A DNA stretch of 49,822 nt. Source: Flavobacteriaceae bacterium. Lineage in GTDB: Bacteria > Bacteroidota > Bacteroidia > Flavobacteriales > Flavobacteriaceae. The notes below the pieces were generated by a model, which was not told where the DNA came from, made no database searches, and was given only the letters and a program-made list of their open reading frames with translations. This document shows, piece by piece, positions 832 through 33,953 of the stretch. The position numbers and the translations under genes were made by a program. The stretch covers positions 1 through 49,822 of the forward strand of contig JALRDC010000117.1 of NCBI GenBank assembly GCA_023262245.1, read 5' to 3'. Each line of letters opens with the position of its first letter. Positions within the stretch are counted from its first letter, which is position 1.

Positions 832-1335
832 ATGAAAAAGGCAATTATCTTTTCGCTATTCCTACTAGCTGGCTCAATCTGTTTCGGCCAATCCATACTT
901 CATTCCGATGATGATGTAGCATATCGTGTTTATAAAGAATACGATAAAAATGGAAATCTCGTCCGCTACGACTCATCAAAAGTAGATAAAAGACCTGGTT
1001 TTATTCAAAAGTTTCATTTTAACTTTAGTTCCGATTCCCTCCCTTTTGTTGAGTTTAAATTCGATTCCTTGATGAATACTAAAAGAAACTTTCTCTATAA
1101 AGGAAATGATTTTTTAGATAGCATTATTTCTCATAAATACGCTCCTAGTTCCAGAATTCTTAAGTTAGACTCTTTGTTTGAGCACCTAACACCTAATGAT
1201 TTTTACCTTGAATTTGATTCTTCTGAAAAAAGCATGGATTCTATTTTGAACCATCACTTCAACAGAATGGAAGGTCTTTTTGAGAAGTATTTTAAAAAAG
1301 AAGAAGCTTTAAAAAAGAAAAAGACCGTACTCTAA
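832..1335 (+). CDS. hypothetical secreted protein (N-terminal signal peptide)
   Basis: 167-aa ORF with an ATG start. It has a hydrophobic N-terminus, MKKAIIFSLFLLAGSICFGQ. No motif recognised. Confidence 0.6.
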   Translation: MKKAIIFSLFLLAGSICFGQSILHSDDDVAYRVYKEYDKNGNLVRYDSSKVDKRPGFIQKFHFNFSSDSLPFVEFKFDSLMNTKRNFLYKGNDFLDSIISHKYAPSSRILKLDSLFEHLTPNDFYLEFDSSEKSMDSILNHHFNRMEGLFEKYFKKEEALKKKKTVL

Positions 1336-1949
1336 AGCGGGAGGTGAACTACTTTTTTTGTCTCAAAAAAAGGATCTTCAAAAAAGCTTTGTAGCGCATA
1401 TTGCTTTGCGTTAGGAAATTCTTTTAATTCCGCTGACAAATCTCCTCCTTTGAGATAAAGTATCCCATTTTTGATTGAATGACGTTGTTCTTTTTTTATA
1501 TTTTTTGCCACCCAAGGCACAAAAGCTTCCATATGTGTAACAGCCCTGCTAACAACAAAATCAACTTTTTTTGAATAGTACTCCGCACGCATTTGTTTTG
1601 AAAAGACATTTTTCAATCCTAAAGCGGAACTAACTCCTTCTACCACTTTTATTTTTTTTCCAATACTGTCAATTAAATCAAACTGTGTATCAGGAAATAA
1701 AATTGCTAAAGGGATGCCCGGAAAACCTCCCCCCGTTCCTACATCAAGCACTTGAGTTTGCGGTTTAAATTGTATCGTTTTTGAAATTCCTAACGAATGT
1801 AAAACATGTCGTACATAAAAAGCATCCATATCTTTTCTAGAAATGACATTGATCTTAGCATTCCATTCTAAATACAATTTTAAAAGTGCCTCAAATTGAT
1901 TTTGTTGAGTCAAACTTAGGTTCGGAAAATATTTTAACAGTGTCTCCAA
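1332..1949 (-). CDS. rsmG: 16S rRNA (guanine527-N7)-methyltransferase
   Basis: 205 aa with the SAM-binding motif VLDVGTGGGFPGIPLAI and GidB-like length and architecture. The start codon at 1949 is TTG. Confidence 0.85.
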   Translation of the reverse strand: METLLKYFPNLSLTQQNQFEALLKLYLEWNAKINVISRKDMDAFYVRHVLHSLGISKTIQFKPQTQVLDVGTGGGFPGIPLAILFPDTQFDLIDSIGKKIKVVEGVSSALGLKNVFSKQMRAEYYSKKVDFVVSRAVTHMEAFVPWVAKNIKKEQRHSIKNGILYLKGGDLSAELKEFPNAKQYALQSFFEDPFFETKKVVHLPL

Positions 1950-5337: not shown

Positions 5338-5913
5338 CTAACTTTTATTTTTTAACTCTTGATAATATTTAGCAACTGCAAGGTTGTGCCAAGGAACAAC
5401 AACAAAGACACCTACAATAAAAAAAAGCAAACCCAAAAGGTAATAAGGTATGAAACGAAGGTGGAGTACAAACAATTCCATTTTATTCCCCTCCATTTGT
5501 TTCCAACTCATTTCCATGGCATCGCTAAATGACATCTCTGTATTTTCAGCAAGTATGTAATAACTCATTGAAAATCCTAAACTTATGATAATTCCTGGAA
5601 TGATAAGAAACACAAGTCCTAAAAGTGTCAAAGCGTTGATGATAAAAAAAAGGAGTAAGGCATTGAGAAGCGGCTTAAACCCCTCAAAAAGATCAAAAAA
5701 TGAGGGGGTGCTTCCTTTGATAATCTTTAAAAAATACATGCAAAGCCCTAGTTGTAAGGGTCCTGCAATCAATAGGGAGAGTAACTCTCCATAAGTATTT
5801 AGCTCTGAAGGAACGGCTATCAATAATCCATAAACCAAACAAACACCTGTTGATAACGCCCAAAAGGGTTTTAATTCATTTAGGGCTTTTTTCATCAGAG
5901 TGGATAAGTCCAT
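5338..5913 (-). CDS. DUF975-like integral membrane protein
   Basis: 191 aa with several hydrophobic helices. The overall pattern resembles DUF975 proteins. Assignment by eye only. Confidence 0.5.
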   Translation of the reverse strand: MDLSTLMKKALNELKPFWALSTGVCLVYGLLIAVPSELNTYGELLSLLIAGPLQLGLCMYFLKIIKGSTPSFFDLFEGFKPLLNALLLFFIINALTLLGLVFLIIPGIIISLGFSMSYYILAENTEMSFSDAMEMSWKQMEGNKMELFVLHLRFIPYYLLGLLFFIVGVFVVVPWHNLAVAKYYQELKNKS

Positions 5914-5929
5914 AAATTTAATTTTAAGA

Positions 5930-7012
5930 TTATGAATTCAATATTTTTTCTTGCTGATTGATAGACTCCTGGTGAATAGCTTTAAACACTCTAAGTATAA
6001 ATTCTTCAGATAATTTGCGCTCTTGTCCTTCAAGTATCATCCTGCCTAAGATTTCATTCCAGCGCTTATTCTGAAGAACCGCTACGTTATTCTCCTTTTT
6101 TAACTTTCCGATTTGACCAGAAACTTGCATGCGCTTACCAAGTGTATCAAGCAGGGTTTGATCCATTACATCAATTTGAGCCCTTAGGTTATTCAATTCA
6201 TTTTGATAATTCTCTTCATTAGTCGTTTCTTTCCTTACTTTCAAATCTTTCATGATTTCAACTAAGCGTGTAGGGGTAACTTGTTGTGCTGCGTCACTCC
6301 ATGCGTTGTCAGGATCCCAATGGGACTCAATCATCAATCCATCAAAATTTAAATCAAGTGCTGCTTGTGAAACATCAAAAATCAGATCTCTTCTTCCTGA
6401 GATGTGTGAGGGATCACAAATCATAGGAAGGTCCGGAAACCTGTTCTTTACTTCTATGGCAATTTGCCATTCGGGAATGTTTCTGTATTTGGTTTTTTCA
6501 TAAGTAGAAAAACCTCTGTGTATTAAACCTAACTTTTTGATATTTGATGAATACAGACGCTCTACACCACCCAACCAGAGGGCCAAATCAGGGTTTACAG
6601 GATTTTTTACCAAGACAATTTTATCTGTTCCTTCTAAAGCATCTGCAATTTCTTGCATGATAAATGGACTAACAGTAGAACGCGCCCCGATCCATAAAAT
6701 ATCTATATCGTTTTCTAAAGCCAGTTTTACATGGTCTTTGTTTGCTACCTCGGTTGCGGTTAACAGCCCAGTCTCTTCTTTTACCTTTTTTAGCCAACCA
6801 AGACCAATAGCACCTACACCCTCAAACATCCCAGGGCGGGTTCTAGGTTTCCAAATTCCAGCGCGGTAAACCGTTACATCGGTATCTTTGAGTTCATGAG
6901 CAATTTTAAGTACTTGTTCTTCAGTTTCTGCGCTACAAGGACCTCCAATGACAAGGGGGTGATTTAATCCAAAGTCATCTAACCATTGGCGCATTTCTTT
7001 TTTGTTTTCCAT
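5930..7012 (-). CDS. bifunctional 3-deoxy-7-phosphoheptulonate (DAHP) synthase / chorismate mutase
   Basis: It has an N-terminal KDO8PS-like type I-beta DAHPS core (GPCSAE, ICDPSH) and a C-terminal AroQ chorismate-mutase-like helix region (LRAQIDVMDQTLLDTLGKRMQVSGQIGKLK). The track start at 7045 would overlap tyrA, so the ATG at 7012 (MENKKEM) is preferred. Confidence 0.85.
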   Translation of the reverse strand: MENKKEMRQWLDDFGLNHPLVIGGPCSAETEEQVLKIAHELKDTDVTVYRAGIWKPRTRPGMFEGVGAIGLGWLKKVKEETGLLTATEVANKDHVKLALENDIDILWIGARSTVSPFIMQEIADALEGTDKIVLVKNPVNPDLALWLGGVERLYSSNIKKLGLIHRGFSTYEKTKYRNIPEWQIAIEVKNRFPDLPMICDPSHISGRRDLIFDVSQAALDLNFDGLMIESHWDPDNAWSDAAQQVTPTRLVEIMKDLKVRKETTNEENYQNELNNLRAQIDVMDQTLLDTLGKRMQVSGQIGKLKKENNVAVLQNKRWNEILGRMILEGQERKLSEEFILRVFKAIHQESINQQEKILNS

Positions 7013-7025
7013 CTTTAAGGTATTT

Positions 7026-7889
7026 CTAGTTGTTATTGGTTTCATTAATTCCTGCCAAAATTGTTTTTATGGCATTTGTTTGTTCCATTTTTTTATTGAT
7101 CGCTTCGTAGTCGTTTTGTTCCATAAGAGATTTAAACTCTTGCAGATTTGCAATGTATTCCTCTAGTACTTCTAAAATATTATCTTGATTTTGTTTAAAA
7201 ATAGGCGTCCACATAGCTGGAGAGCTTTTTGCCAAACGTACGGTAGATTCAAAACCACTCCCCGCCATATTAAAAATAGTTCGTTCATCCTTTTCTTTTT
7301 CCATAACGGTTTTTCCTAGCATGAACGAAGAGATATGGGAGATATGGGATACATAGGCAATGTGTTTATCATGTTCTTTTGGATCCATTTCTTGGAGTTG
7401 CATTTCCATCTTATTGAACCATTGTACCGCCCATTCCAAAAGATCAGGTCTTGTTTTATGAGTTTCACATAAAATTTGCGCCTTGCCAGTATACAGGTTT
7501 TCAAAAGCAGCGGAGGGACCAGAAAATTCTGTTCCAGCGATGGGGTGTGTAGCTAAAAACTGATTGCGCTTTGGGTGTAATTCTAGCGTAGAACAAATCA
7601 TTGATTTTGTTGAACCTACATCTATTAGTAAGGCATTATCATTCATTTGATCTAGCAAGGAAATTACTCTTGTAACTGAAGCGTCAACGGGTATTGCTAG
7701 GAGGATGACATCCATAGCGGCATAATTTTGACTATTTAAAGTTTCATCTATGAGTTCCAATTCCAAAGCCTGGACTAAATGAGCACGCTTTTGGTCTTCA
7801 CCATACAAACGGATGTTGTTCAAATGTTTTCTAGCAGCCAATGCAAATGAACCGCCTATTAATCCCAAGCCTATAAATCCTATATTCAT
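7026..7889 (-). CDS. tyrA: prephenate dehydrogenase
   Basis: 287 aa with an N-terminal Rossmann motif IGFIGLGLIGGS and the HPIAG motif. It lies within an aromatic amino-acid operon. Confidence 0.85.
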   Translation of the reverse strand: MNIGFIGLGLIGGSFALAARKHLNNIRLYGEDQKRAHLVQALELELIDETLNSQNYAAMDVILLAIPVDASVTRVISLLDQMNDNALLIDVGSTKSMICSTLELHPKRNQFLATHPIAGTEFSGPSAAFENLYTGKAQILCETHKTRPDLLEWAVQWFNKMEMQLQEMDPKEHDKHIAYVSHISHISSFMLGKTVMEKEKDERTIFNMAGSGFESTVRLAKSSPAMWTPIFKQNQDNILEVLEEYIANLQEFKSLMEQNDYEAINKKMEQTNAIKTILAGINETNNN

Positions 7890-9037
7890 GATTCAAAACG
7901 TTTTATTGCTTCCTCTATGGTCGTTTCCGGAACACAGAGTGAAAATCGGATGTAGCCGGCACCTCCATTTCCAAAGATAGTCCCTGGAGTGATGAAGACA
8001 TGCTGCTCTTGTAAGATTTTATCAATAAAGGCTTCCGAATCTAAATTTTTCTCAGGAAGCTTTGCCCAAAGAAAGAGTCCTACACTTTCGGGTTCTATCT
8101 TCACGCCTAATTTGTTTGCCAATTCTTCCATTCGAGACCTTCTTCTTTGATAGATTTCGTTCAGTTTTGAAAACCAATCTGGGGACATTTCTAAGGCTGC
8201 TATGGCTCCTTGCTGAAGTCCGTAAAACATTCCCGAGTCCATATTGCTTTTCACTTTTAAAACTTCTTTTAAAACTGCTGCTTTACCAGAAAGCATTCCA
8301 ACACGCCAGCCTGCCATATTAAAAGACTTACTTAATGAATTCAATTCTACTGTTACTTCTTTTGCTCCTGGACGTGAAAGGATACTTTGAGGTTTTTGAG
8401 TCAATACAAAACTATAAGGATTGTCATTAACCAATAAAATATCACGCTCTTTTGCCCAGGCAATTAACCGATCAAAGGTTTCGATTTTTGCATCGGCTCC
8501 AGTTGGCATATGGGGATAATTTAACCACATGATTTTTACCTTAGAGGTATCCATCGCTTCCAAGGACTTAAAATCGGGTTGCCAGCGAGTTTGGGCTTCT
8601 AAATCATAAAGTACAACTTCCGCTTCCATCAACTGAGTTACGGAAGCATAAGTGGGATATCCAGGGTTGGGAATTAATACTTGATCTCCAGGGTTTAAAA
8701 AGGCCATAGAAATGTGCATGATGCCTTCTTTTGAACCCATCAATGGAAGTACTTCGTTTTGGTAATCTAAATCTACATTATAATGTTTTTTATAAAAACT
8801 ACTGATTGCCGCTCTTAATTCAGGAATTCCCTGATAGCTTTGATACATATGTGCCTTAGGATGGTTTAGTGCTTGCCTTAAGCTTTCAATTACCTTTGGA
8901 TGGGGCTGTAGGTCTGGACTGCCAATTCCCATATTGATTACCGGATGACCCGCTTTAATCATTTGGGCTACTTCTCTAAGTTTTCGAGAAAAATAGTATT
9001 CTTGGACACTCGCTAAACGGTTTGCAGTTGCTTTCAT
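7886..9037 (-). CDS. class I/II PLP aminotransferase (probable aromatic/prephenate aminotransferase)
   Basis: 383 aa with motifs MGIGSPD, NYPHMPTG and LSKSFNMAGWRVG. It has 4-nt start/stop overlaps with pheA upstream and tyrA downstream. Confidence 0.8.
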   Translation of the reverse strand: MKATANRLASVQEYYFSRKLREVAQMIKAGHPVINMGIGSPDLQPHPKVIESLRQALNHPKAHMYQSYQGIPELRAAISSFYKKHYNVDLDYQNEVLPLMGSKEGIMHISMAFLNPGDQVLIPNPGYPTYASVTQLMEAEVVLYDLEAQTRWQPDFKSLEAMDTSKVKIMWLNYPHMPTGADAKIETFDRLIAWAKERDILLVNDNPYSFVLTQKPQSILSRPGAKEVTVELNSLSKSFNMAGWRVGMLSGKAAVLKEVLKVKSNMDSGMFYGLQQGAIAALEMSPDWFSKLNEIYQRRRSRMEELANKLGVKIEPESVGLFLWAKLPEKNLDSEAFIDKILQEQHVFITPGTIFGNGGAGYIRFSLCVPETTIEEAIKRFES

Positions 9038-9867
9038 CTTTTGTGTTGAGCGTATTCACCCAATATTTTAAATTTTGAAGCCATAATGGCAAGGAGCTTT
9101 CGTGCCTTCTCATAGTGAGAAAAGTCATCAAATGTAACATCTACAAAAAAGGCATATTTCCCCGGGGTTTCAATTACAGGAAGGGATTGTATTTTGGTCA
9201 AATTAAGTTGACAGTCACTCATCACATTAAGAACAGCTGCCAAACTCCCACGTTGATGATCCAAGATAAATTTTAAAGCGGCTTTATTGACCTTATTTTG
9301 AGGGACAAGAGTTCCCTTTTTTTGGATAATGACAAAGCGAGTGACGTTGTTTTTTATGGTTTGTATAGAAGTAGCAAATACTTTTAAACCAAAAAGAGTT
9401 GCTGCTTCTTTACTGGCAATTGCTCCGATGCCTTTCAATTGGTTTTCTGCAATGCGCTGTGCTTCTTCAGCTGTATCTTCAGACTCTACCAAACGGATAT
9501 GAGGATAATCTTTGAAAAAGTTTTTACACTGCAATAAAGCCATTGGATGAGAGTGAACTTCTTGGATATCCTCAATGGTTTGTCCCGAAAGACCCATAAA
9601 ATTGTGATGTATGCTTAATCCGTATTCCCCTACAATTTGTAAATCATTTTGATCGATTAAGGCATAATTAGGAATAATGGATCCTGCAATTGAATTTTCA
9701 ATAGCCATTACTGCTTGGTCTGCAGTTCCTTGAAGAACAGCATTTACAGAAGCATCAAAAGTATCACAAGCTACTAAGGACAGTTGTTCGCCAAAGTATT
9801 TTTTTGCGACAAGATGGTGAAACGATCCTTGTTTTCCTTGTATGGCTACTGTTATTTTGGTTTCCAT
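9034..9867 (-). CDS. pheA: prephenate dehydratase
   Basis: It has a PDT domain plus a C-terminal ACT-like region (GSLAAVLNVM, YAFFVD). The track start at 9876 is a TTG lying inside the U-tract of the upstream hairpin, so the ATG at 9867 (METKITVAIQG) is preferred. Confidence 0.85.
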   Translation of the reverse strand: METKITVAIQGKQGSFHHLVAKKYFGEQLSLVACDTFDASVNAVLQGTADQAVMAIENSIAGSIIPNYALIDQNDLQIVGEYGLSIHHNFMGLSGQTIEDIQEVHSHPMALLQCKNFFKDYPHIRLVESEDTAEEAQRIAENQLKGIGAIASKEAATLFGLKVFATSIQTIKNNVTRFVIIQKKGTLVPQNKVNKAALKFILDHQRGSLAAVLNVMSDCQLNLTKIQSLPVIETPGKYAFFVDVTFDDFSHYEKARKLLAIMASKFKILGEYAQHKR

Positions 9868-9874
9868 TGAGTTC

Positions 9875-9903
9875 AAAAAAAAAGTCCCGATGGCATCAGG
9901 ACT
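9875..9903 (-). terminator. intrinsic terminator (attenuator) immediately upstream of pheA
   Basis: The minus-strand RNA reads AGUCCUGAU-GCC-AUCGGGACU, a 9-bp stem with one G-U pair and a 3-nt loop. It is followed by a U run (9 consecutive T's counting the last stem base). The U run ends 8 nt before the pheA ATG. Confidence 0.7.
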
Positions 9904-9930
9904 TTATTATCTTATATTATTGATTAATTA

Positions 9931-9999
9931 CTACAAAGTCCAGTTAGCTTCTGCGTAGAAGTAATAAAAGTCGTTATAGTAAAAAAATGTTGTTTTCAT
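9931..9999 (-). CDS. candidate Phe/Tyr-rich leader peptide of the pheA operon (22 aa, MKTTFFYYNDFYYFYAEANWTL)
   Basis: Hand translation of the minus strand gives ATG AAA ACA ACA TTT TTT TAC TAT AAC GAC TTT TAT TAC TTC TAC GCA GAA GCT AAC TGG ACT TTG TAG. Nine of the 11 codons at positions 5-15 are Phe or Tyr. The ORF sits between a promoter-like element and the attenuator hairpin, and is too short for the ORF track. Confidence 0.6.
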   Translation of the reverse strand: MKTTFFYYNDFYYFYAEANWTL

Positions 10000-10014
10000 T
10001 GTTTAAAATCTCAG

Positions 10015-10045
10015 CAAATGTACTATTGCTTTTATCAAAAACAAA
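10015..10045 (-). promoter_or_regulatory. Bacteroidetes-type promoter (-33 TTTG / -7 TAnnTTTG) for the pheA leader
   Basis: The minus strand reads TTTG (10045..10042), then 19 nt, then TACATTTG (10022..10015). The -7 box ends 15 nt upstream of the leader ATG. Confidence 0.5.
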
Positions 10046-10317
10046 TTTTTAGCGTTTTTTTTTAAAATTGTTTGAGAAGAACTTCCTAAATCAAGTTTTA
10101 AATTGAAAAAAAATCCCTAAACCGAAAAAAATATGGAATCCCCTAAACTGACCTAGATCAATTACAGCGATGGTTATAAAATAAATTAAAGGACTAATGA
10201 GGCGAGAACGGAAGTAGGATGGCGAACTTTGGTAAGAGAACTACTCATTACTTTTTAAAACAGTAATGAATAGTTATTGAAAAGAAGTATCTTATCCTTT
10301 ATTTAAAAATCATTTCT

Positions 10318-11445
10318 TTGCTTGAAGCTTTCGTAATTGTATTAGTAACTGTTCTGCTGATCCTTTTTTTAGAAAAGTGGGACAAGGTTTGGATTAAAAA
10401 GTTCTTCAATTGGATTCCATCGATTCTCTTAGCCTACTTAATTCCTGCTATAATTTCTAGTATTTTAAATCAAGATTACAGTCAAATTGAAATCCATGAT
10501 TGGAGTAAGACGGTGTTCATCCCTATGGCTGTATTAGCAGTTATGAGCAGTTTGTCTATAAATCAACTAAAAGCTATAGGATGGAAACCCATCGTTGTTT
10601 TTGTTTCAGGTTCTTTTTGGATTGCATTATTCCCAGTTGCTTTTGTATATCTATTTCAACATACTTCTATGGTCTCTGAGCTTTTTGTAAAACAAGAGGT
10701 CTGGAAAGCCATCCCCCCAGTAGTAGGAAGTTGGATTGGGGGAAGTACAAGTCAATTGGTTCTTAAGGAGGTGGTAGCCTGTTCGGAAGCTTTGTTTTTG
10801 ACTGTTCTGGTTTTGGATAACATCTTGGTTAATCTTTGGACGATTGGGATGTTTCAAAATATTAAAAGAAGTGCCTTTTTTAATCGTTTGTTAAAGATCA
10901 ATGCCCTGTCGCTTCCCGAAGAAATTAAAGATAGTCCAGACAAAAAAACGAACCCTTTGATCACCTTTATAGTGCTTCTAGCATTAGTTTATGGGGTTGA
11001 GTTAAGCTTCACCTCTTTTGTGGGGAAGATTGTAGTTTTATCTTTTCTAGGATTGGGATTGGGATTCTTCATTAAATCTTGGAACAGCAAATTCATTTTA
11101 AAATTGGGCAGTTTCCTTATTTTAGTTGTAATGGCAGTTTTGGGATTAAAACTGCGCTTTGAACTCTTACAATTTGATCCTTTTTTTGTTGGATTTCTGG
11201 TCTTGTGGTTGTTCAGTCATTTTGTATTCATGCTGGGGGTAGCAAAACTTCTAAATGTCAATGCCGCATGGGTGCCCATAGCAAGTATGGCAAATGTTGG
11301 CGGAATAGCAACAGCTCCCGCGGTTACAGCTGCTTATGAAAAAAAGTGGATGCCCCATGCCATCATTTTGGCGGTGTTGAGCATGGCAAGTGGAACCTTT
11401 TGGGGTTTGCTGACCATTAGTCTTTTTCGTTTCTTTATACTTTAA
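10318..11445 (+). CDS. DUF819-like polytopic membrane protein (putative transporter)
   Basis: 375 aa and highly hydrophobic, with motifs GSWIGGSTSQ and NVGGIATAPAVTAAY reminiscent of DUF819/YjcL proteins. The start codon is TTG at 10318, so the true start is uncertain. Confidence 0.55.
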   Translation: MLEAFVIVLVTVLLILFLEKWDKVWIKKFFNWIPSILLAYLIPAIISSILNQDYSQIEIHDWSKTVFIPMAVLAVMSSLSINQLKAIGWKPIVVFVSGSFWIALFPVAFVYLFQHTSMVSELFVKQEVWKAIPPVVGSWIGGSTSQLVLKEVVACSEALFLTVLVLDNILVNLWTIGMFQNIKRSAFFNRLLKINALSLPEEIKDSPDKKTNPLITFIVLLALVYGVELSFTSFVGKIVVLSFLGLGLGFFIKSWNSKFILKLGSFLILVVMAVLGLKLRFELLQFDPFFVGFLVLWLFSHFVFMLGVAKLLNVNAAWVPIASMANVGGIATAPAVTAAYEKKWMPHAIILAVLSMASGTFWGLLTISLFRFFIL

Positions 11446-20477: not shown

Positions 20478-21749
20478 TTAAATCTGGGCAAAGGCGTTTT
20501 CTAAATCCTCAATAAGATCTTTAATGTCTTCAAGTCCAACAGAAAGGCGAATCAAATCCTTTGTTACTCCAGTTGTTTTCTGTGCCTCGTCATCCAATTG
20601 TTGATGCGTTGTACTCGCTGGATGAATAATCAATGATTTAGTATCGCCAATATTGGCTAATAGAGAAAATAACTGGGTGTGATCTGCAACAATTTTTCCG
20701 GCTTCATACCCTTTTTTCAAACCAAATGTTACAATCCCACTTTGACCCTTAGGAAGGTATTGTTGAGCCAGGCTGTTGTACTTTGAGGTCTTGAGGCCAG
20801 GGTAATTTACCCAAGCTACTTCATCTCTCGTAGAAAGCCAAGCAGCGAGTTTTAATGCATTTTCAGAATGCTTCTTCATTCTTATTTCTAAGGTTTCAAT
20901 CCCTTGAATGCTTTGAAAACTGTTAAAAGGACTCGGAGCACTTCCCAAATCGCGAAGTCCTTCAATTCGAACCTTCGCAATAAAAGCAATGTTTCCTAAA
21001 GCTTCGTGATAATTTAAGCCGTGATAACTCGGATTGGGTTCTGTAAATTCTGGAAAATTTCCATTTCCCCAATCAAAAGTTCCAGCGTCTATGATAACCC
21101 CTCCTATGGAAGTTCCATTTCCTGTAAGATACTTAGTCAAAGAGTGGATTACGATATTAGCACCGTGTTCAATCGGATTTAATAAGGCTGGTGAAGCCAC
21201 TGTATTATCCACAACAAAAGGAACTTTTGCCTTTTTAGCAGCAGCAGAAATTGCTTTTAAATCAAGGACGTCCAATTTGGGATTTCCTAAAGATTCTGCG
21301 AAAAATAAACGGGTGTTTGGTGCAACCGCATTTGTAAATTCCTCTGGATTATCGGGATCGACAAAAGTGGTAGTAATACCAAAACGAGGTAAGGTATTGG
21401 CTAATAAATTGTAGGTTCCACCATACAAACTATTTGAAGCTACAATATGATCTCCTGTTTTTAAAATGACCATTAGGGTTGTAGCTATCGCCGCAGTTCC
21501 CGAGGCAGTAGCAACTGCTGCAACCCCGCCTTCCATTGCTGCTAGACGTTGTTCTAAAACATCATTTGTAGGGTTGTTTAGTCGGGTATAAATATATCCT
21601 GGTTCGGCTAAAGAAAATAAATTCGCCGCATGGTCTGAATTATTAAACACATAGGATGTGGTTTGATAAATGGGAACTGCTTGTGTTCCTTGTGTATTTT
21701 TAGCATCATGACCTGCATGTAATGCTTTTGTTGCTACTTGTGTACTCAT
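20478..21749 (-). CDS. metY: O-acetylhomoserine aminocarboxypropyltransferase (sulfhydrylase)
   Basis: 423 aa with the PLP-lysine motif [11 protein letters not shown] and the C-terminal [10 protein letters not shown]. Confidence 0.85.
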
Positions 21750-23002
21750 AATTGAAAGTGATTTTTGATAGTTTCTAAATAATCTAATTTTTCCCAGGTA
21801 AAAAGCTCAATTTCTTTTGAGATTTTTCCATTGTAAGGAGATTCGAATGTTTTTATAATTTTTTGAGGCTGGCGCCCCATATGCCCGTAAGATGCTGTTT
21901 CTAAATACATAGGATTTCGCAACTTAAGTCGCTGTTCGATTGCGTAAGGTTGCATATCAAAGATTTCAGCTGCTTTTTGAGCAATCGCTGCATCATCTAA
22001 AGCTACTTTAGCCGTTCCGTAAGTATTGATAAAAATGGAGGTAGGTTCTACCACCCCTATGGCATAACTCAACTGAACCAAGATTTCATCTGCAACTCCG
22101 GCAGCTACGAGATTTTTTGCCATATGGCGAGCCGCATAAGCCGCACTACGATCTACTTTGCTAGGGTCTTTTCCGCTGAAAGCACCTCCCCCGTGACCTC
22201 CTTTTCCACCGTAGGTATCCACGATAATTTTTCTTCCAGTCAATCCCGTATCGCCATGAGGCCCCCCGATGACAAACTTCCCTGTTGGATTTACATGATA
22301 AGTGATCTCCTCCCCAAAAAGTTTTTGTATTTCAGGGCTTGATTTAGCTACAACCCTGGGGATCAAGATGTTTTTTATATCGTTTTTTATCTGTTGCAAC
22401 ATCGCTTTTTCATCCGTATTAAAGTCGTCGTGTTGCGTAGAAACGACTATAGTGTCTATTCGCAAGGGTTTGTTGTGGTCATCGTATTCGATGGTAACTT
22501 GTGATTTAGCGTCGGGACGTAAATAGGTGATTTCTTTATTTTCTCTTCTTAGATCCGCAAGTTCAATCAATATCTTATGAGATAAATCAAGTGCTAAAGG
22601 AATATAAGTATCCGTCTCTTTGGTGGCGTATCCAAACATGATTCCTTGGTCTCCAGCACCTTGGGCTTCTTTTTCTTCACGATCTACTCCCCTATTGATG
22701 TCTTGAGATTGTTCGTGAATTAAAGAAATTACCCCACAGGAGTCCCCACTAAATTGATAAGCTCCTTGGGTATATCCAATTTTGTTGATGGTTTCTCTTG
22801 CTATGGATTGTACGTCTAGATAGGTAGCACTTTTTACTTCCCCTGCCAAAATGACTTGGCCCGTGGTAACCAGTGTTTCACAAGCTACTTTACTTTCTGG
22901 ATCAAAAGCTAAAAAATTATCAAGCAAGGCATCACTAATTTGATCTGCGATTTTATCTGGATGACCTTCGCTTACAGATTCTGAGGTAAAAAAATATGAC
23001 AT
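21746..23002 (-). CDS. metK: S-adenosylmethionine synthetase
   Basis: 418 aa with motifs [20 protein letters not shown] and GGGAFSGKD. Confidence 0.95.
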
Positions 23003-23053
23003 TTATAAGTTGCTTTTACGGAAGGATTCAAACGGTGCGTTTTGAAAAGCAAC

Positions 23054-23105
23054 ACTGCTTTAGCATTTTTTTTTCGAGGTTTGCAATCAGTCAAATCCTT
23101 CCTCG
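23054..23105 (-). promoter_or_regulatory. candidate SAM-II/SAM-V-class (H-type pseudoknot) riboswitch aptamer in the metK 5' leader
   Basis: The minus-strand RNA reads CGAGG-AAGGAUUUG-ACUGAUUGCA-AA-CCUCG-AAAAAAAAA-UGCUAAAGCAGU. CGAGG pairs with CCUCG (P1). The tail UGC-U-AA-AG-CAGU pairs with the loop ACUG-A-UU-GCA (P2a/P2b). L1 is U-rich and L3 is A-rich. The element is about 52 nt, lies just downstream of a promoter-like element and precedes a methionine/SAM operon. The class assignment rests on my memory of the consensus and is not a covariance-model hit. Confidence 0.5.
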
Positions 23106-23114
23106 TTTGTGGTA

Positions 23115-23951: not shown

Positions 23952-26258
23952 TTACTCTTTCGCTTCTGCTTCTATTGAAGTTTCACCTTCTTTTACCACA
24001 ACTTCAACAACCATTTCTTTGTTGCTCTCAGAAGTAACATTTACCGTATAAGTCTCTTCAGAAGCTTCCCCTTCCTCAGTAACCACTACTTCAACAAGGT
24101 TTGTTTCTGCTTTAGCATTTACATAGGCGGTAACCGCAGCTCCATCCATGGCAATACTTGGTGCGATCACCAAGGCTACTACAGACATTAACTTAAGTAA
24201 AATGTTTAATGAAGGTCCTGAAGTATCTTTAAAAGGATCTCCAACGGTATCTCCAACAACAGCGGCCTTGTGAGCATCAGTTCCTTTTTTACCTTGTTCT
24301 TCGATCATTTTCTTTGCATTTTCCCAGGCACCACCAGCATTGGACTGAAATATGGCCATCAAGACTCCACAAGTTGTTACTCCAGCGAGGAGGCCTCCGA
24401 GCATTTCTGCCCCACCAAAAAAGCCAACTCCTACGGGAACCACTATGGCTAATACACCGGGAAGTACCATTTCTTTAATCGAAGCCGTAGTAGAGATCGC
24501 CACACATTTGTCGTATTCTGCTACCCCATCAGCAGCATCAAAAATTTTACGGTCTGCTGCCGAAGCCTTAGACATATCTGAGTCGTATTTAATCATGACA
24601 TCCAGTGCTGCTCGTAATGCAGGAATGTCTCTAAACTGTCTTCGTACTTCTTCGATCATAGCCATGGCTGCTCTTCCTACTGCGTTCATTGACAAAGCAG
24701 AAAAAACAAATGGAAGCATTCCTCCTACCAAAAGTCCTGCCATGATTCTGGGTTGAGAAACATCAATCGCTGCTACTCCAGCTGTTTTCATAAAGGCAGC
24801 AAATAAAGCCAAAGCGGTTAATGCTGCCGAAGCAATTGCAAAACCTTTACCGATAGCTGCAGTAGTGTTTCCAACCGCATCTAGTTTGTCTGTACGTTCG
24901 CGTACTTCAGGCTCAAGCTCTGCCATTTCGGCAATTCCTCCTGCGTTATCTGAAATGGGTCCGTACGCATCAACTGCGAGCTGAATTCCTGTATTGGCAA
25001 GCATCCCAACGGCTGCTATCGCAATACCATATAAACCAGCAAAGTAATGAGAGATCAAAATCGCTGCCGCAATTAAGATAATAGGTACGGCAGTGGACAT
25101 CATCCCTACCCCTAAACCAGCAATGATATTGGTAGCTGCACCTGTTTCAGATTGTTCTACGATAGAAGTCACTGGCTTGGTTCCTGTACCTGTATAATAT
25201 TCGGTTACTTTTCCTACAGCTAACCCTGCTACAAGTCCAGCAATGGTAGCATAAAAAACTCCCATTGCTCCGAAGGGTAATCCCTCAACAGCTTCAGGTA
25301 GAAAAGCATTGATTAAAAAATAAGAAGCTACTAGCATTAAGCCCGCAGAACCAAATTCTCCTAGATTTAGTGCAGCGTGAGGGGAACCTCCTTCTTTAAC
25401 GCGAACAAAAAATGTTCCTATGATGGACATTACAATCCCTACAGCTGCTAAAGCTAAAGGTAAATATACCGCACCAAGACCATTAAAATCTGGAGTGATG
25501 ATTAAAGCACCCAAGACCATAGTACCAATAATAGACCCTACATAGGATTCAAAAAGGTCTGCTCCCATTCCGGCAACATCACCTACGTTATCCCCTACGT
25601 TATCTGCAATCGTTGCGGGGTTTAAAGGGTGGTCTTCAGGGATTCCCGCTTCAACTTTCCCTACAAGGTCTGCTCCTACATCAGCGGCTTTGGTATAAAT
25701 TCCACCACCCACTCGAGCAAATAGTGCTATGGAAGAGGCTCCTAAAGAGAACCCAGATAGCACATTTAAAACTTCAGAAATTTCCCATCCTTGCTCGCTG
25801 TATAGGGCAAACAGACCACTAAGTCCTAAAACTCCAAGACCTACAACACCAAGTCCCATAACAGCTCCTCCTGCAAAAGCTACTTCTAATGCTTTTCCTA
25901 AGGAGGTTCTCGCAGCATTGGTTGTTCTTACGTTGGCTTTAGTTGCGACACGCATCCCAATAAAACCTGCCAAGGCGGAACAAATTGCACCTACGATAAA
26001 GGATACGGCAACCATTCCGTTTGAACCTGCTTCTGCCTGTCCTTTGAAGAACAAGAGTATTGCTACGGCTATAACAAAAATGAATAAAATTTTGTATTCT
26101 GCCTTTAAGAAAGACATTGCCCCATCTGCTATGTTTTTAGCGATACGAGCCATTTTTTCATTTCCTACCTCTTGTTTAGAAACCCAACTGTTTTTGATAA
26201 AAACAAAGAGCAAAGCTAGTCCTCCAAATGCGGGTAAAAATTGTATAATAAATTCCAT
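23952..26258 (-). CDS. hppA: membrane-bound proton/sodium-translocating pyrophosphatase (K+-dependent type) with an extra acidic C-terminal tail
   Basis: 768 aa with motifs [26 protein letters not shown] and [24 protein letters not shown] has Ala rather than Lys at the K+-dependence position. The roughly 65-aa C-terminal extension is described in the findings. Confidence 0.9.
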
Positions 26259-26374
26259 GTTTATGTGTTGTTTGAAAGTGTGCGTAAAAATAGTAAAACA
26301 ATCTAGAATAAAAAATGAATTCTAGTAGGTTAAAACCATATGAAAAACTGCTTTTTCGAACGAGTTATTTAAAA

Positions 26375-32778: not shown

Positions 32779-32816
32779 GCCGTTTTTTTTATGTGATATC
32801 GTTTTTTTTTTATTTT

Positions 32817-33953
32817 CTATTTGTTGTTCATAAAGCTCAAGACTTTAGTACTAATATATTCAATTTGTTTTGAGTTTAACTCAGAATGCATGGGTAATGA
32901 AATTACTTCTTTAACTAATTGATTGGTAACAGGAAAAATTGTATCATCCGTTTGAGGGTCTTTATAAGCCTTTTGTTTATGCAAGGGTACAGGGTAGTAA
33001 ATCCCGCAAGGGATGTTCTGCTCCTTGAGGTAACTTGCTAAGTCATCACGCTTCCCGTTTGTAATCCTTAGGGTATATTGATGATATACATGAGAATCAC
33101 AATCGGCTGCCCGAAAGGGTGTTAAGAGATCTGGATGGGATTCCAAAGCTTGCGTGTATTTTAAGGCGGCTTCTTTTCTGCGTTCATTATAAAAGTCTAA
33201 GTATTGTAATTTGACTTTTAGAACTGCAGCCTGTAATGCATCTAAACGCGAATTAACCCCTACTACATCGTGATAATATGGTTTATACATCCCGTGGTTT
33301 ACAATGCCCCGTAAAAACGCTGCAAGCTGATCATCATTAGTAAAAATTGCTCCCCCATCCCCATAGGCACCTAGATTTTTTGAGGGAAAAAAAGAAGTTG
33401 CTGCCAAGTGACCTAAAGTTCCCGTTTTGGCTTTTCTTCCGTCGGGAAAAGTATACTGTGCCCCTATGCCTTGAGCATTGTCTTCAATTACATACAACTG
33501 ATGCCTTTCTGCTATACTTAAAATTTGATCCATAGCTGCAGCTTGACCAAAGAGATGAACAGGTATGATTGCCTTAGTTTTTGGAGTAATGGCCTTTTCG
33601 ATTGCTTTTGGATCAATATTAAAAGTCTTTGGATTTACATCGACTAGTATGGGTTTTAATTTTAGTAAGGAAATAACCTCAACAGTTGCTGCAAAGGTAA
33701 AATCAGCAGTAATAATTTCATCTCCCGGTTCGAGTTGTAAACTCATCAAAGCAATCTGTAAGGCATCTGTCCCATTGGCACAGGGAATGACATGTTTCAC
33801 TTGAAGATAGGATTCTAAATCGTGCTGAAAGGCCTGAACCATAGGCCCATTTATAAAGGTGGTTTGTTCTAATACTTCCTCCATAGCTAGAGCTACCTCC
33901 TCTTTAATGAAGTCGTATTGTTTTTTTAAATCCACCATTTTAATGGAATCCAT
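32817..33953 (-). CDS. DegT/DnrJ/EryC1/StrS-family sugar aminotransferase
   Basis: 378 aa with motifs CANGTDAL, the PLP-lysine region SFFPSKNLGAYGDGG, and a C-terminal ISLPMH. Confidence 0.85.
   Translation of the reverse strand: MDSIKMVDLKKQYDFIKEEVALAMEEVLEQTTFINGPMVQAFQHDLESYLQVKHVIPCANGTDALQIALMSLQLEPGDEIITADFTFAATVEVISLLKLKPILVDVNPKTFNIDPKAIEKAITPKTKAIIPVHLFGQAAAMDQILSIAERHQLYVIEDNAQGIGAQYTFPDGRKAKTGTLGHLAATSFFPSKNLGAYGDGGAIFTNDDQLAAFLRGIVNHGMYKPYYHDVVGVNSRLDALQAAVLKVKLQYLDFYNERRKEAALKYTQALESHPDLLTPFRAADCDSHVYHQYTLRITNGKRDDLASYLKEQNIPCGIYYPVPLHKQKAYKDPQTDDTIFPVTNQLVKEVISLPMHSELNSKQIEYISTKVLSFMNNK

Follow-up and report, generated by a model that had tools for sequence, protein, structure and literature searches.

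The 49,822-nt stretch of DNA analysed here, contig JALRDC010000117.1 of the Flavobacteriaceae bacterium assembly GCA_023262245.1 (hereafter the window, meaning the whole stretch), carries on its minus strand a four-gene operon that begins with pheA. Upstream of pheA lie a promoter, a short open reading frame (ORF) dense in phenylalanine and tyrosine codons, and a hairpin followed by a run of T. An earlier note on this DNA had proposed that these parts form an attenuator in which a ribosome senses Phe and Tyr while an antiterminator made of the last leader codons competes with the terminator. Conservation among relatives, the codon pattern of the leader and a scan for pairing partners all favour that proposal, and we consider it highly probable from the sequences compared that the element controls the pheA-aminotransferase-tyrA-DAHP synthase/chorismate mutase operon as a ribosome-mediated (leader-peptide) transcription attenuator, sensing the charging of tRNA-Phe and tRNA-Tyr.

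The pheA locus

The promoter, the leader and the genes of the operon are, in the direction of transcription:

10042..10045, minus strand: -33 promoter element TTTG, read from the sequence
10015..10022, minus strand: -7 promoter element TACATTTG, which fits the Bacteroidetes sigma-A consensus TAnnTTTG
9931..9999, minus strand: leader ORF of 22 codons plus TAG, MKTTFFYYNDFYYFYAEANWTL, identified by translation and by orthologous ORFs in relatives
9955..9987, minus strand: regulatory codons 5-15 of the leader (FFYYNDFYYFY), 9 of 11 of them Phe or Tyr by translation
5930..9867, minus strand: the regulated four-gene operon, in which neighbouring gene ends overlap by 4-20 nt
9867..9034, minus strand: pheA, prephenate dehydratase with an ACT domain (Pfam match)
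9037..7886, minus strand: class I/II aminotransferase (Pfam match)
7889..7026, minus strand: tyrA, prephenate dehydrogenase (Pfam match)
7045..5930, minus strand: DAHP synthase fused to chorismate mutase (Pfam match)

The Pfam matches agree with the earlier assignment of this operon to the synthesis of Phe and Tyr. A hairpin scan found no convincing intrinsic terminator inside the operon, and its sole minus-strand entry at 5790..5776 lies downstream of the operon and is without a T run.

The promoter, proposed earlier as TTTG-N19-TACATTTG, can be read at 10045..10015 with a spacer of exactly 19 nt between TTTG (10045..10042) and TACATTTG (10022..10015), and it is kept in relatives. These are 80 pheA loci collected by scanning one genome per species for PheA relatives. 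They come from marine Flavobacteriaceae and allies (metagenome-assembled genomes (MAGs) of the MS024-2A type, Arcticimaribacter, Tenacibaculum and Ascidiimonas), and their PheA proteins are 59-83% identical to that of the window. TAnnTTTG stands 5' of the leader ATG in 78 of the 80 loci, and TTTG lies 18-19 nt 5' of the -7 box in 75, the distance being exactly 19 nt in 72. Because the start site of the Flavobacterium psychrophilum leader was mapped 6 nt after TTTG (Table S3 row THC0290_T_0224), transcription of the window's leader is predicted to start near 10009, which would leave a 5' untranslated region of about 10 nt. A run of A (AAAAAAA or longer) is also conserved just 5' of the -33 TTTG in most of the 80 loci, falling at about 10046..10070 on the minus strand of the window; its role may be that of an UP-like element, or it may belong to the divergent promoter region.

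Translation of 9999..9931 yields the ORF that had been reported, with Phe or Tyr at 9 of the 11 codons in positions 5-15 (ATG AAA ACA ACA TTT TTT TAC TAT AAC GAC TTT TAT TAC TTC TAC GCA GAA GCT AAC TGG ACT TTG TAG). Such a mini-ORF could be imagined as a chance product of an AT-rich spacer beside an ordinary hairpin, given that TTT, TTC, TAT and TAC are all AT-rich and that the spacer is 28% GC. We regard this explanation as effectively refuted and give it almost no weight, in line with the earlier argument that the clustering is not accidental. Only one of 5000 dinucleotide-preserving shuffles of the 450-nt intergenic region (28% GC) produces an ATG-initiated ORF with at least 9 Phe or Tyr in 11 codons. 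Among 55,149 stop-free 11-codon windows, taken in six frames over the 49.8-kb window, the leader alone reaches nine, the next-best having eight. Moreover, both the frame and the structure are kept in 80 of 80 loci.

Further attenuators in the window were sought by looking for a terminator directly 5' of each long ORF. The only case was pheA, which alone among the long ORFs is preceded on the same strand, at a distance of up to 250 nt, by a stable hairpin with a T run. Two other frames are rich in Phe and Tyr. One, near 26319 on the minus strand (26280..26320; 7-8 of 11 codons), falls in the promoter region of a 768-aa ORF at 26258..23952; it was rejected as a second leader for want of an ATG, a stop and any terminator architecture. 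The other, at 32784 on the plus strand (32781..32830; also 7-8 of 11), falls in the short interval that separates two minus-strand genes. The two frames look like chance products of T-rich sequence, and neither looks like a leader.

Conservation in related pheA loci

The alignment of pheA upstream regions that the earlier note had called for shows the Phe/Tyr mini-ORF and the hairpins conserved in relatives, with changes on both sides of base pairs. The leader ORF and the terminator occur in 80 of 80 loci, and the promoter and the copy of the terminator 3' arm near the end of the leader are likewise found throughout this set. The ORF is 18-25 codons long (exactly 22 codons in 44 of 79 leaders), its ATG is nearly invariant, and an ATG and in-frame stop are kept in every locus. 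The consensus peptide reads M-(N/K)-N-x-F-(F/S)-Y-Y-N-x-F-Y-Y-F-Y-x-E-A-x-(R/G)-T-L before the stop; Phe and Tyr together make up 630 of 1719 leader residues (284 Phe and 346 Tyr, with a median of 8 per leader), and Trp occurs only twice. A covariance model built from the alignment gives one strong match per locus, always at the pheA leader, with scores of 40-123 bits. The window's match scores 113.5 bits and is single-copy, with nothing else above about 22 bits. Reverse-strand matches to the model (25-47 bits) were rejected as elements, being due to the palindromic terminator. A separate listing of PheA homologues, comprising at least the 120 closest relatives and all at 75% identity or more, adds no breadth beyond the 80 loci.

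Two of the loci are arranged differently. L068 had been counted as leaderless (79 of 80) until the covariance model located its leader about 340 nt further upstream, and that count was dropped. Its leader and terminator are kept at 1048..1158 (MVLHNVWRGFYFYFLMEVETL, then a stop), with about 340 nt of unrelated sequence before pheA, which begins at about 1500; the spacer may have arisen by insertion, or the 5' region may be rearranged. In L078 the leader is intact (1257..1381), the tblastn match to PheA from 1501 does not begin until residue 43 of the query, and the in-frame ORF after the terminator is just 31 codons long, which suggests a frameshift, a pseudogenised pheA 5' end or an error in MAG assembly.

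Codon-level constraint on the leader

Codon tallies across 77 orthologs indicate what has been preserved in the leader. Codons 7, 8 and 11-15 are Phe or Tyr in 83-99% of them. The third positions of these codons are almost solely T or C, with hardly any A or G despite the low GC content of the spacer (28%); at codon 12 the third base is T in 59 sequences, C in 18 and A or G in none. The second positions alternate between A and T, that is, between Tyr and Phe, so that codon 12 is Tyr in 55 orthologs and Phe in 21. The restriction of third positions to T or C and the toggling between Tyr and Phe therefore argue for selection for a Phe-or-Tyr codon, rather than for AT richness or RNA pairing alone. 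Gaps follow the reading frame as well: within the ORF columns 283 of 364 gap runs are 3 nt long and 70 are 1 nt, and in the spacer 3' of the leader stop alignment gaps of every length occur. On these patterns we infer that the leader ORF is translated.

The same patterns bear on the idea that the terminator is run by a trans-acting factor, be it an RNA-binding protein akin to TRAP or PyrR, uncharged tRNA (the T-box mechanism) or a small molecule acting through a riboswitch, with the ORF merely incidental. Such mechanisms, too, use a promoter-proximal terminator with alternative pairings, and the conserved helices P1 and H described below could in principle serve as a binding platform. However, an RNA-only element would have no need of the codon-type substitutions just described, and the ATG and in-frame stop are kept in 80 of 80 loci. 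The element is also only about 125 nt long with simple helices, and no T-box, riboswitch or other cis-regulatory family comes near threshold in Rfam: with Rfam 15, nothing in 9000..11000 was above threshold in a search at E up to 10. We therefore hold control by a trans-acting factor to be improbable and prefer the reading in which a translating ribosome is the sensor.

RNA segments and helices

The leader transcript can be divided into four segments and an internal hairpin:

9974..9982, minus strand: region 1, UUACUAUAA (end of Phe6, Tyr7, Tyr8 and start of Asn9), the 5' arm of helix P1, from the minimum-free-energy fold and covariation
9948..9961, minus strand: hairpin H, CUUCU-ACGC-AGAAG, with Tyr13-Phe14-Tyr15 paired with x-Glu-Ala, from the minimum-free-energy fold and covariation
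9928..9941, minus strand: region 2, GGACUUUGUAGUAA, whose 5' part GGACUUUGU is the antiterminator arm and whose 3' part UUGUAGUAA, which includes the leader stop, is the 3' arm of P1
9895..9907, minus strand: region 3, AUAAAGUCCUGAU, the terminator 5' arm, whose 5' nine bases can pair with region 2 instead
9875..9891, minus strand: region 4, AUCGGGACUUU, the terminator 3' arm running into a U9 tract, from the hairpin scan

The terminator hairpin, AAAGTCCTGAT-GCC-ATCGGGACTTT at 9905..9881, has 11 pairs, four of them G-C, and the T run that follows ends at 9875, leaving 7 nt before the pheA ATG at 9867. The hairpin and U run proposed earlier are thus present, with 11 pairs in place of 9 and 7 nt rather than 8 before the ATG. 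The 11-bp stem with its U9 tract is a predicted intrinsic terminator between the leader ORF and pheA. Folded alone, the hairpin has a free energy of -12.4 kcal/mol. Pairs were counted in a MAFFT alignment made without regard to structure; in it, the terminator helix is 98% paired over 77 sequences, with C-G to U-A changes in four lineages.

The last leader codons were said to be complementary to the terminator 5' arm, and indeed GGACUUUGU (9941..9933) can form 9 bp, including one G-U, with AUAAAGUCC (9907..9899). The heptamer GGACUUU at the leader end, proposed to compete with the terminator 3' arm for this partner, likewise has its counterpart in region 2 of all 80 loci. The antiterminator is 77% paired in the alignment, compared with 36-56% when one partner is slid along the other. 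Four lineages whose terminator reads GUCUCG/CGAGAC carry GAGAC or GAGGC in region 2 (G-C to A-U changes). An unbiased scan of every 14-nt leader window against the terminator 5' arm placed the best partner at the end of the leader ORF (nt 45-66) in all 78 sequences, among them F. psychrophilum, whose stem differs (GGGAUUGU/ACAAUCCC).

Two further helices lie within the leader. Helix P1 joins UUACUAUAA (Tyr7-Tyr8-Asn9) to UUGUAGUAA (Leu22 to three nucleotides past the stop) and encloses hairpin H, which is a possible pause hairpin. P1 (columns 21-29 with 77-85) is 88% paired and shows changes on both sides in 6 of 9 pairs, and the corresponding figures for H (columns 45-49 with 60-65) are 85% and 4 of 5. 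Together the two are 87% paired with 10 of 14 pairs changed on both sides, values that none of 500 shuffles equalled. The pair between the third base of Tyr7 and the third base of the stop codon (TAG or TAA) is especially informative: the combinations are U-A in 29 sequences, C-G in 27, U-G in 16 and C-A in a single one, although independence of the two sites would predict about 11 C-A. Mapped on a PheA tree, the Tyr7 wobble and the stop site have changed about 12 and about 9 times independently. Overall, three of the four helices show clear covariation, and the antiterminator has modest support. The earlier note had described a compact three-segment attenuator. That model is rejected on the covariation of P1, because of which, with the conserved inner hairpin, the element is to be seen as a classical four-segment attenuator in which regions 1 and 2 also pair.

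These observations also speak to whether the upstream unit might be an independent small gene, encoding an aromatic-rich micropeptide or a small RNA, with pheA expressed by leaky read-through and no sensing involved. The unit does possess its own complete set of promoter, ORF and terminator, and the 5' segment builds up as a transcript of its own in F. psychrophilum. Nevertheless, the C-terminal half of the peptide is conserved as nucleotides and base pairs rather than as amino acids, and covariation ties its stop codon to a Tyr wobble. In every case the element is linked to pheA, and no promoter-like sequence fits into the interval between the terminator and pheA (7 nt here and at most 9 nt in most loci), so pheA must be transcribed through the terminator. 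An independent gene seems to us a shade less credible still than control by a trans-acting factor, and we return to attenuation by a ribosome on the leader.

Folding and the proposed mechanism

The comparison of alternative structures suggested in the earlier note was carried out by folding the RNA with a 28-nt ribosome footprint kept single-stranded, and both structures were obtained. Without a ribosome the fold consists of P1 with H plus the terminator, at -23.3 kcal/mol. A ribosome whose A site is at the stop codon covers region 2, and the terminator alone forms. If instead the A site is placed at any of codons 5-15 and the RNA is truncated ahead of region 4, folding yields the 9-bp antiterminator. 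The leader published for F. psychrophilum behaves alike.

Taken with the conservation of the four segments, this behaviour suggests the following scheme, in which we infer ribosome stalling, a kinetic order of folding and a response to starvation. Transcription would begin at the sigma-A promoter about 10 nt 5' of the leader ATG. Were no ribosome on the leader, region 1 (the Tyr7-Tyr8-Asn9 codons) would pair with region 2 (Leu22 to stop+3), leaving region 3 free for the 3:4 terminator. When Phe and Tyr are plentiful, the ribosome would reach the stop inside region 2 and cover that region, and again the 3:4 terminator would result. In either case RNA polymerase would halt on reaching the U9 tract, a few nucleotides short of pheA. 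A shortage of Phe-tRNA or Tyr-tRNA would make the ribosome stall in codons 5-15, holding region 1 open and leaving region 2 (GGACUUUGU) free. While region 4 is still to be made, region 2 would pair with AUAAAGUCC at the base of the terminator 5' arm, so that polymerase would read through into pheA. The mixture of Phe and Tyr codons would on this scheme be multivalent attenuation, and it is fitting because the operon makes both amino acids as well as the shared early enzymes.

Several observations weigh against this interpretation. The antiterminator is weaker than the terminator in the window (-7.2 versus -12.4 kcal/mol), and in the full-length RNA the terminator always prevails, so the switch must depend on kinetics, just as the classical model has it. 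Only the lower 7-9 of the 11 stem pairs are spanned by the antiterminator, which leaves CUGAU of the 5' arm free to nucleate the terminator, and antitermination in this organism is therefore probably partial. Covariation specific to the antiterminator is thin, with three pairs changed on both sides in few lineages, and 5-14 of 500 shuffles match its observed values. Much of the sequence conservation could in principle stem from recent common ancestry. What we can say for attenuation in this organism comes from sequence analysis, and to our knowledge the coupling of transcription and translation that the scheme calls for is undemonstrated in Bacteroidota.

Initiation at pheA and on the leader

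The U tract of the terminator ends at most 9 nt before the pheA ATG in most loci (7 nt in the window, 9868..9883 on the minus strand; 13-22 nt in the Arcticimaribacter group), and there is no room for a Shine-Dalgarno sequence between the two. The tract may double as an unstructured initiation region for pheA. One speculative extension, which we consider rather doubtful, is a dual-level switch suited to translation without Shine-Dalgarno sequences, in which the choice between 3:4 and 2:3 pairing would at the same time expose or mask the site of pheA initiation in read-through RNA, with the U tract as the landing site. This reading also takes in the leader stop codon, which is part of P1 and covaries with a Tyr wobble: its universal conservation would point to tight coupling of transcription and translation in Bacteroidota, and in some lineages leaderless leader-peptide mRNAs would be involved.

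At the other end of the leader, the ATG follows the -7 box by only 5-8 nt in 14 of the 80 loci (L041-L044, L051, L056, L060, L066, L069, L071, L073, L077, L079 and L080). If the start site lies 6 nt after TTTG there, as in F. psychrophilum, the leader-peptide mRNAs of these loci would be leaderless or nearly so, which, if true, would be an unusual way of starting a sensing ribosome.

Comparison with known systems

The element adds comparative evidence for classical ribosome-dependent attenuation in a phylum in which initiation is not led by Shine-Dalgarno sequences, and this would imply a temporal coupling of transcription with translation in that phylum. Should the proposed mechanism hold, the element would explain how Phe and Tyr biosynthesis is tuned in abundant uncultured marine Flavobacteriaceae.

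The arrangement has several known counterparts. In E. coli, the thr (Thr and Ile) and ilvGMEDA (Ile, Leu and Val) leaders mix codons for several operon-linked amino acids. They resemble the window's element in that one leader carries codons for more than one amino acid, and differ in the amino acids, the phylum and the sequences.

The pheL-pheA attenuator of E. coli and other gamma-proteobacteria (Phe_leader, RF01859) works by the same logic, with regulatory codons clustered in a short leader ORF, alternative 1:2, 2:3 and 3:4 pairings and an intrinsic terminator ahead of pheA (PMC3082878). The E. coli leader has Phe codons only and controls pheA alone, whereas the window's leader has both Phe and Tyr codons and would control pheA, tyrA and DAHP synthase/chorismate mutase; it further differs in its Bacteroidetes-type promoter, the lack of a Shine-Dalgarno sequence and a terminator that ends 7 nt before the ATG. 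Membership in RF01859 was rejected, the match reaching 21.1 bits (E=1.7) against a gathering score of 55, as was membership in leu-phe_leader (RF01743), with 17.9 bits against a gathering score of 70 and only the terminator covered. Sub-threshold matches in general (Phe_leader, MicC, Yfr10 and others) were set aside as driven by the terminator and U run.

Within the Bacteroidetes, Bacteroid-trp (RF01692) is the Trp counterpart predicted across the phylum (Weinberg et al. 2010, PMC2864571) and confirmed as a transcribed 5' region in F. psychrophilum (PMC9723704). It too is a predicted leader-peptide attenuator 5' of an aromatic amino-acid operon, but it has Trp codons and lies upstream of the trp operon. 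The window's element was rejected as a member, giving no match at E up to 10, with 2 Trp among the 1719 leader residues. At the gathering score, the only match to cis-regulatory models of Rfam in the whole window is an unrelated SAM-II riboswitch (RF01726) at 23050..23110 on the minus strand, with 75.6 bits against a gathering score of 44. It lies directly 5' of ORF 23002..21746, which is S-adenosylmethionine synthetase (metK) by Pfam and is followed by a pyridoxal-phosphate enzyme of Cys/Met metabolism. The same SAM-II-metK arrangement was reported for F. psychrophilum metK.

The closest known relative is the pheA leader of F. psychrophilum itself. The earlier note called such attenuators not routinely annotated in Flavobacteriia; this element is documented there. 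Guerin et al. (2021, ISME Commun, PMC9723704, Table S7, SI D9) mapped the start site and a separate 171-nt 5' transcript of F. psychrophilum pheA. They reported read-through under specific conditions with operon expression highest in minimal medium, drew putative terminator and antiterminator hairpins, and noted conservation of the 5' element in other Flavobacteriaceae genera without an Rfam hit (PMC9723704). The literature searched beyond that study yielded no other paper on the pheA 5' element.

We take the window's element to be the ortholog of this described but uncurated leader-peptide attenuator. Both stand directly 5' of pheA-aminotransferase behind a sigma-A TAnnTTTG promoter, and in both the terminator U run abuts pheA. 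The F. psychrophilum leader is aromatic-rich (MNTNNTFYSNNSFYFYWNIGRDCYMVI), its end copies the terminator 3' arm (GGGAUUGU/ACAAUCCC) to give four segments, and a P1-like helix is present (UAUAGCAA/UUGUUAUA). An nhmmer profile of the 77 marine sequences (alignment A1) matches positions 2-122 of the published 171-nt sequence at 19.1 bits, which is weak but runs end to end and collinear, with corresponding helices. The two differ in that the F. psychrophilum leader has 27 codons, against 22 in the window, and includes a codon for Trp; its stop comes 12 nt after the end of region 2, whereas that of the window's leader is inside region 2. The stem sequences are different, primary-sequence similarity is low, and the F. 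psychrophilum antiterminator is far stronger than the window's.

The picture drawn for F. psychrophilum in 2021 is left unchanged by our analysis. What is new here is the fourth segment with its covariation between wobble and stop, the presence of the element in 80 of 80 marine Flavobacteriaceae loci, and a usable covariance model. A well-supported RNA family absent from Rfam now has 81 sequences, a covariance model and four helices, and it could be curated for genome annotation.

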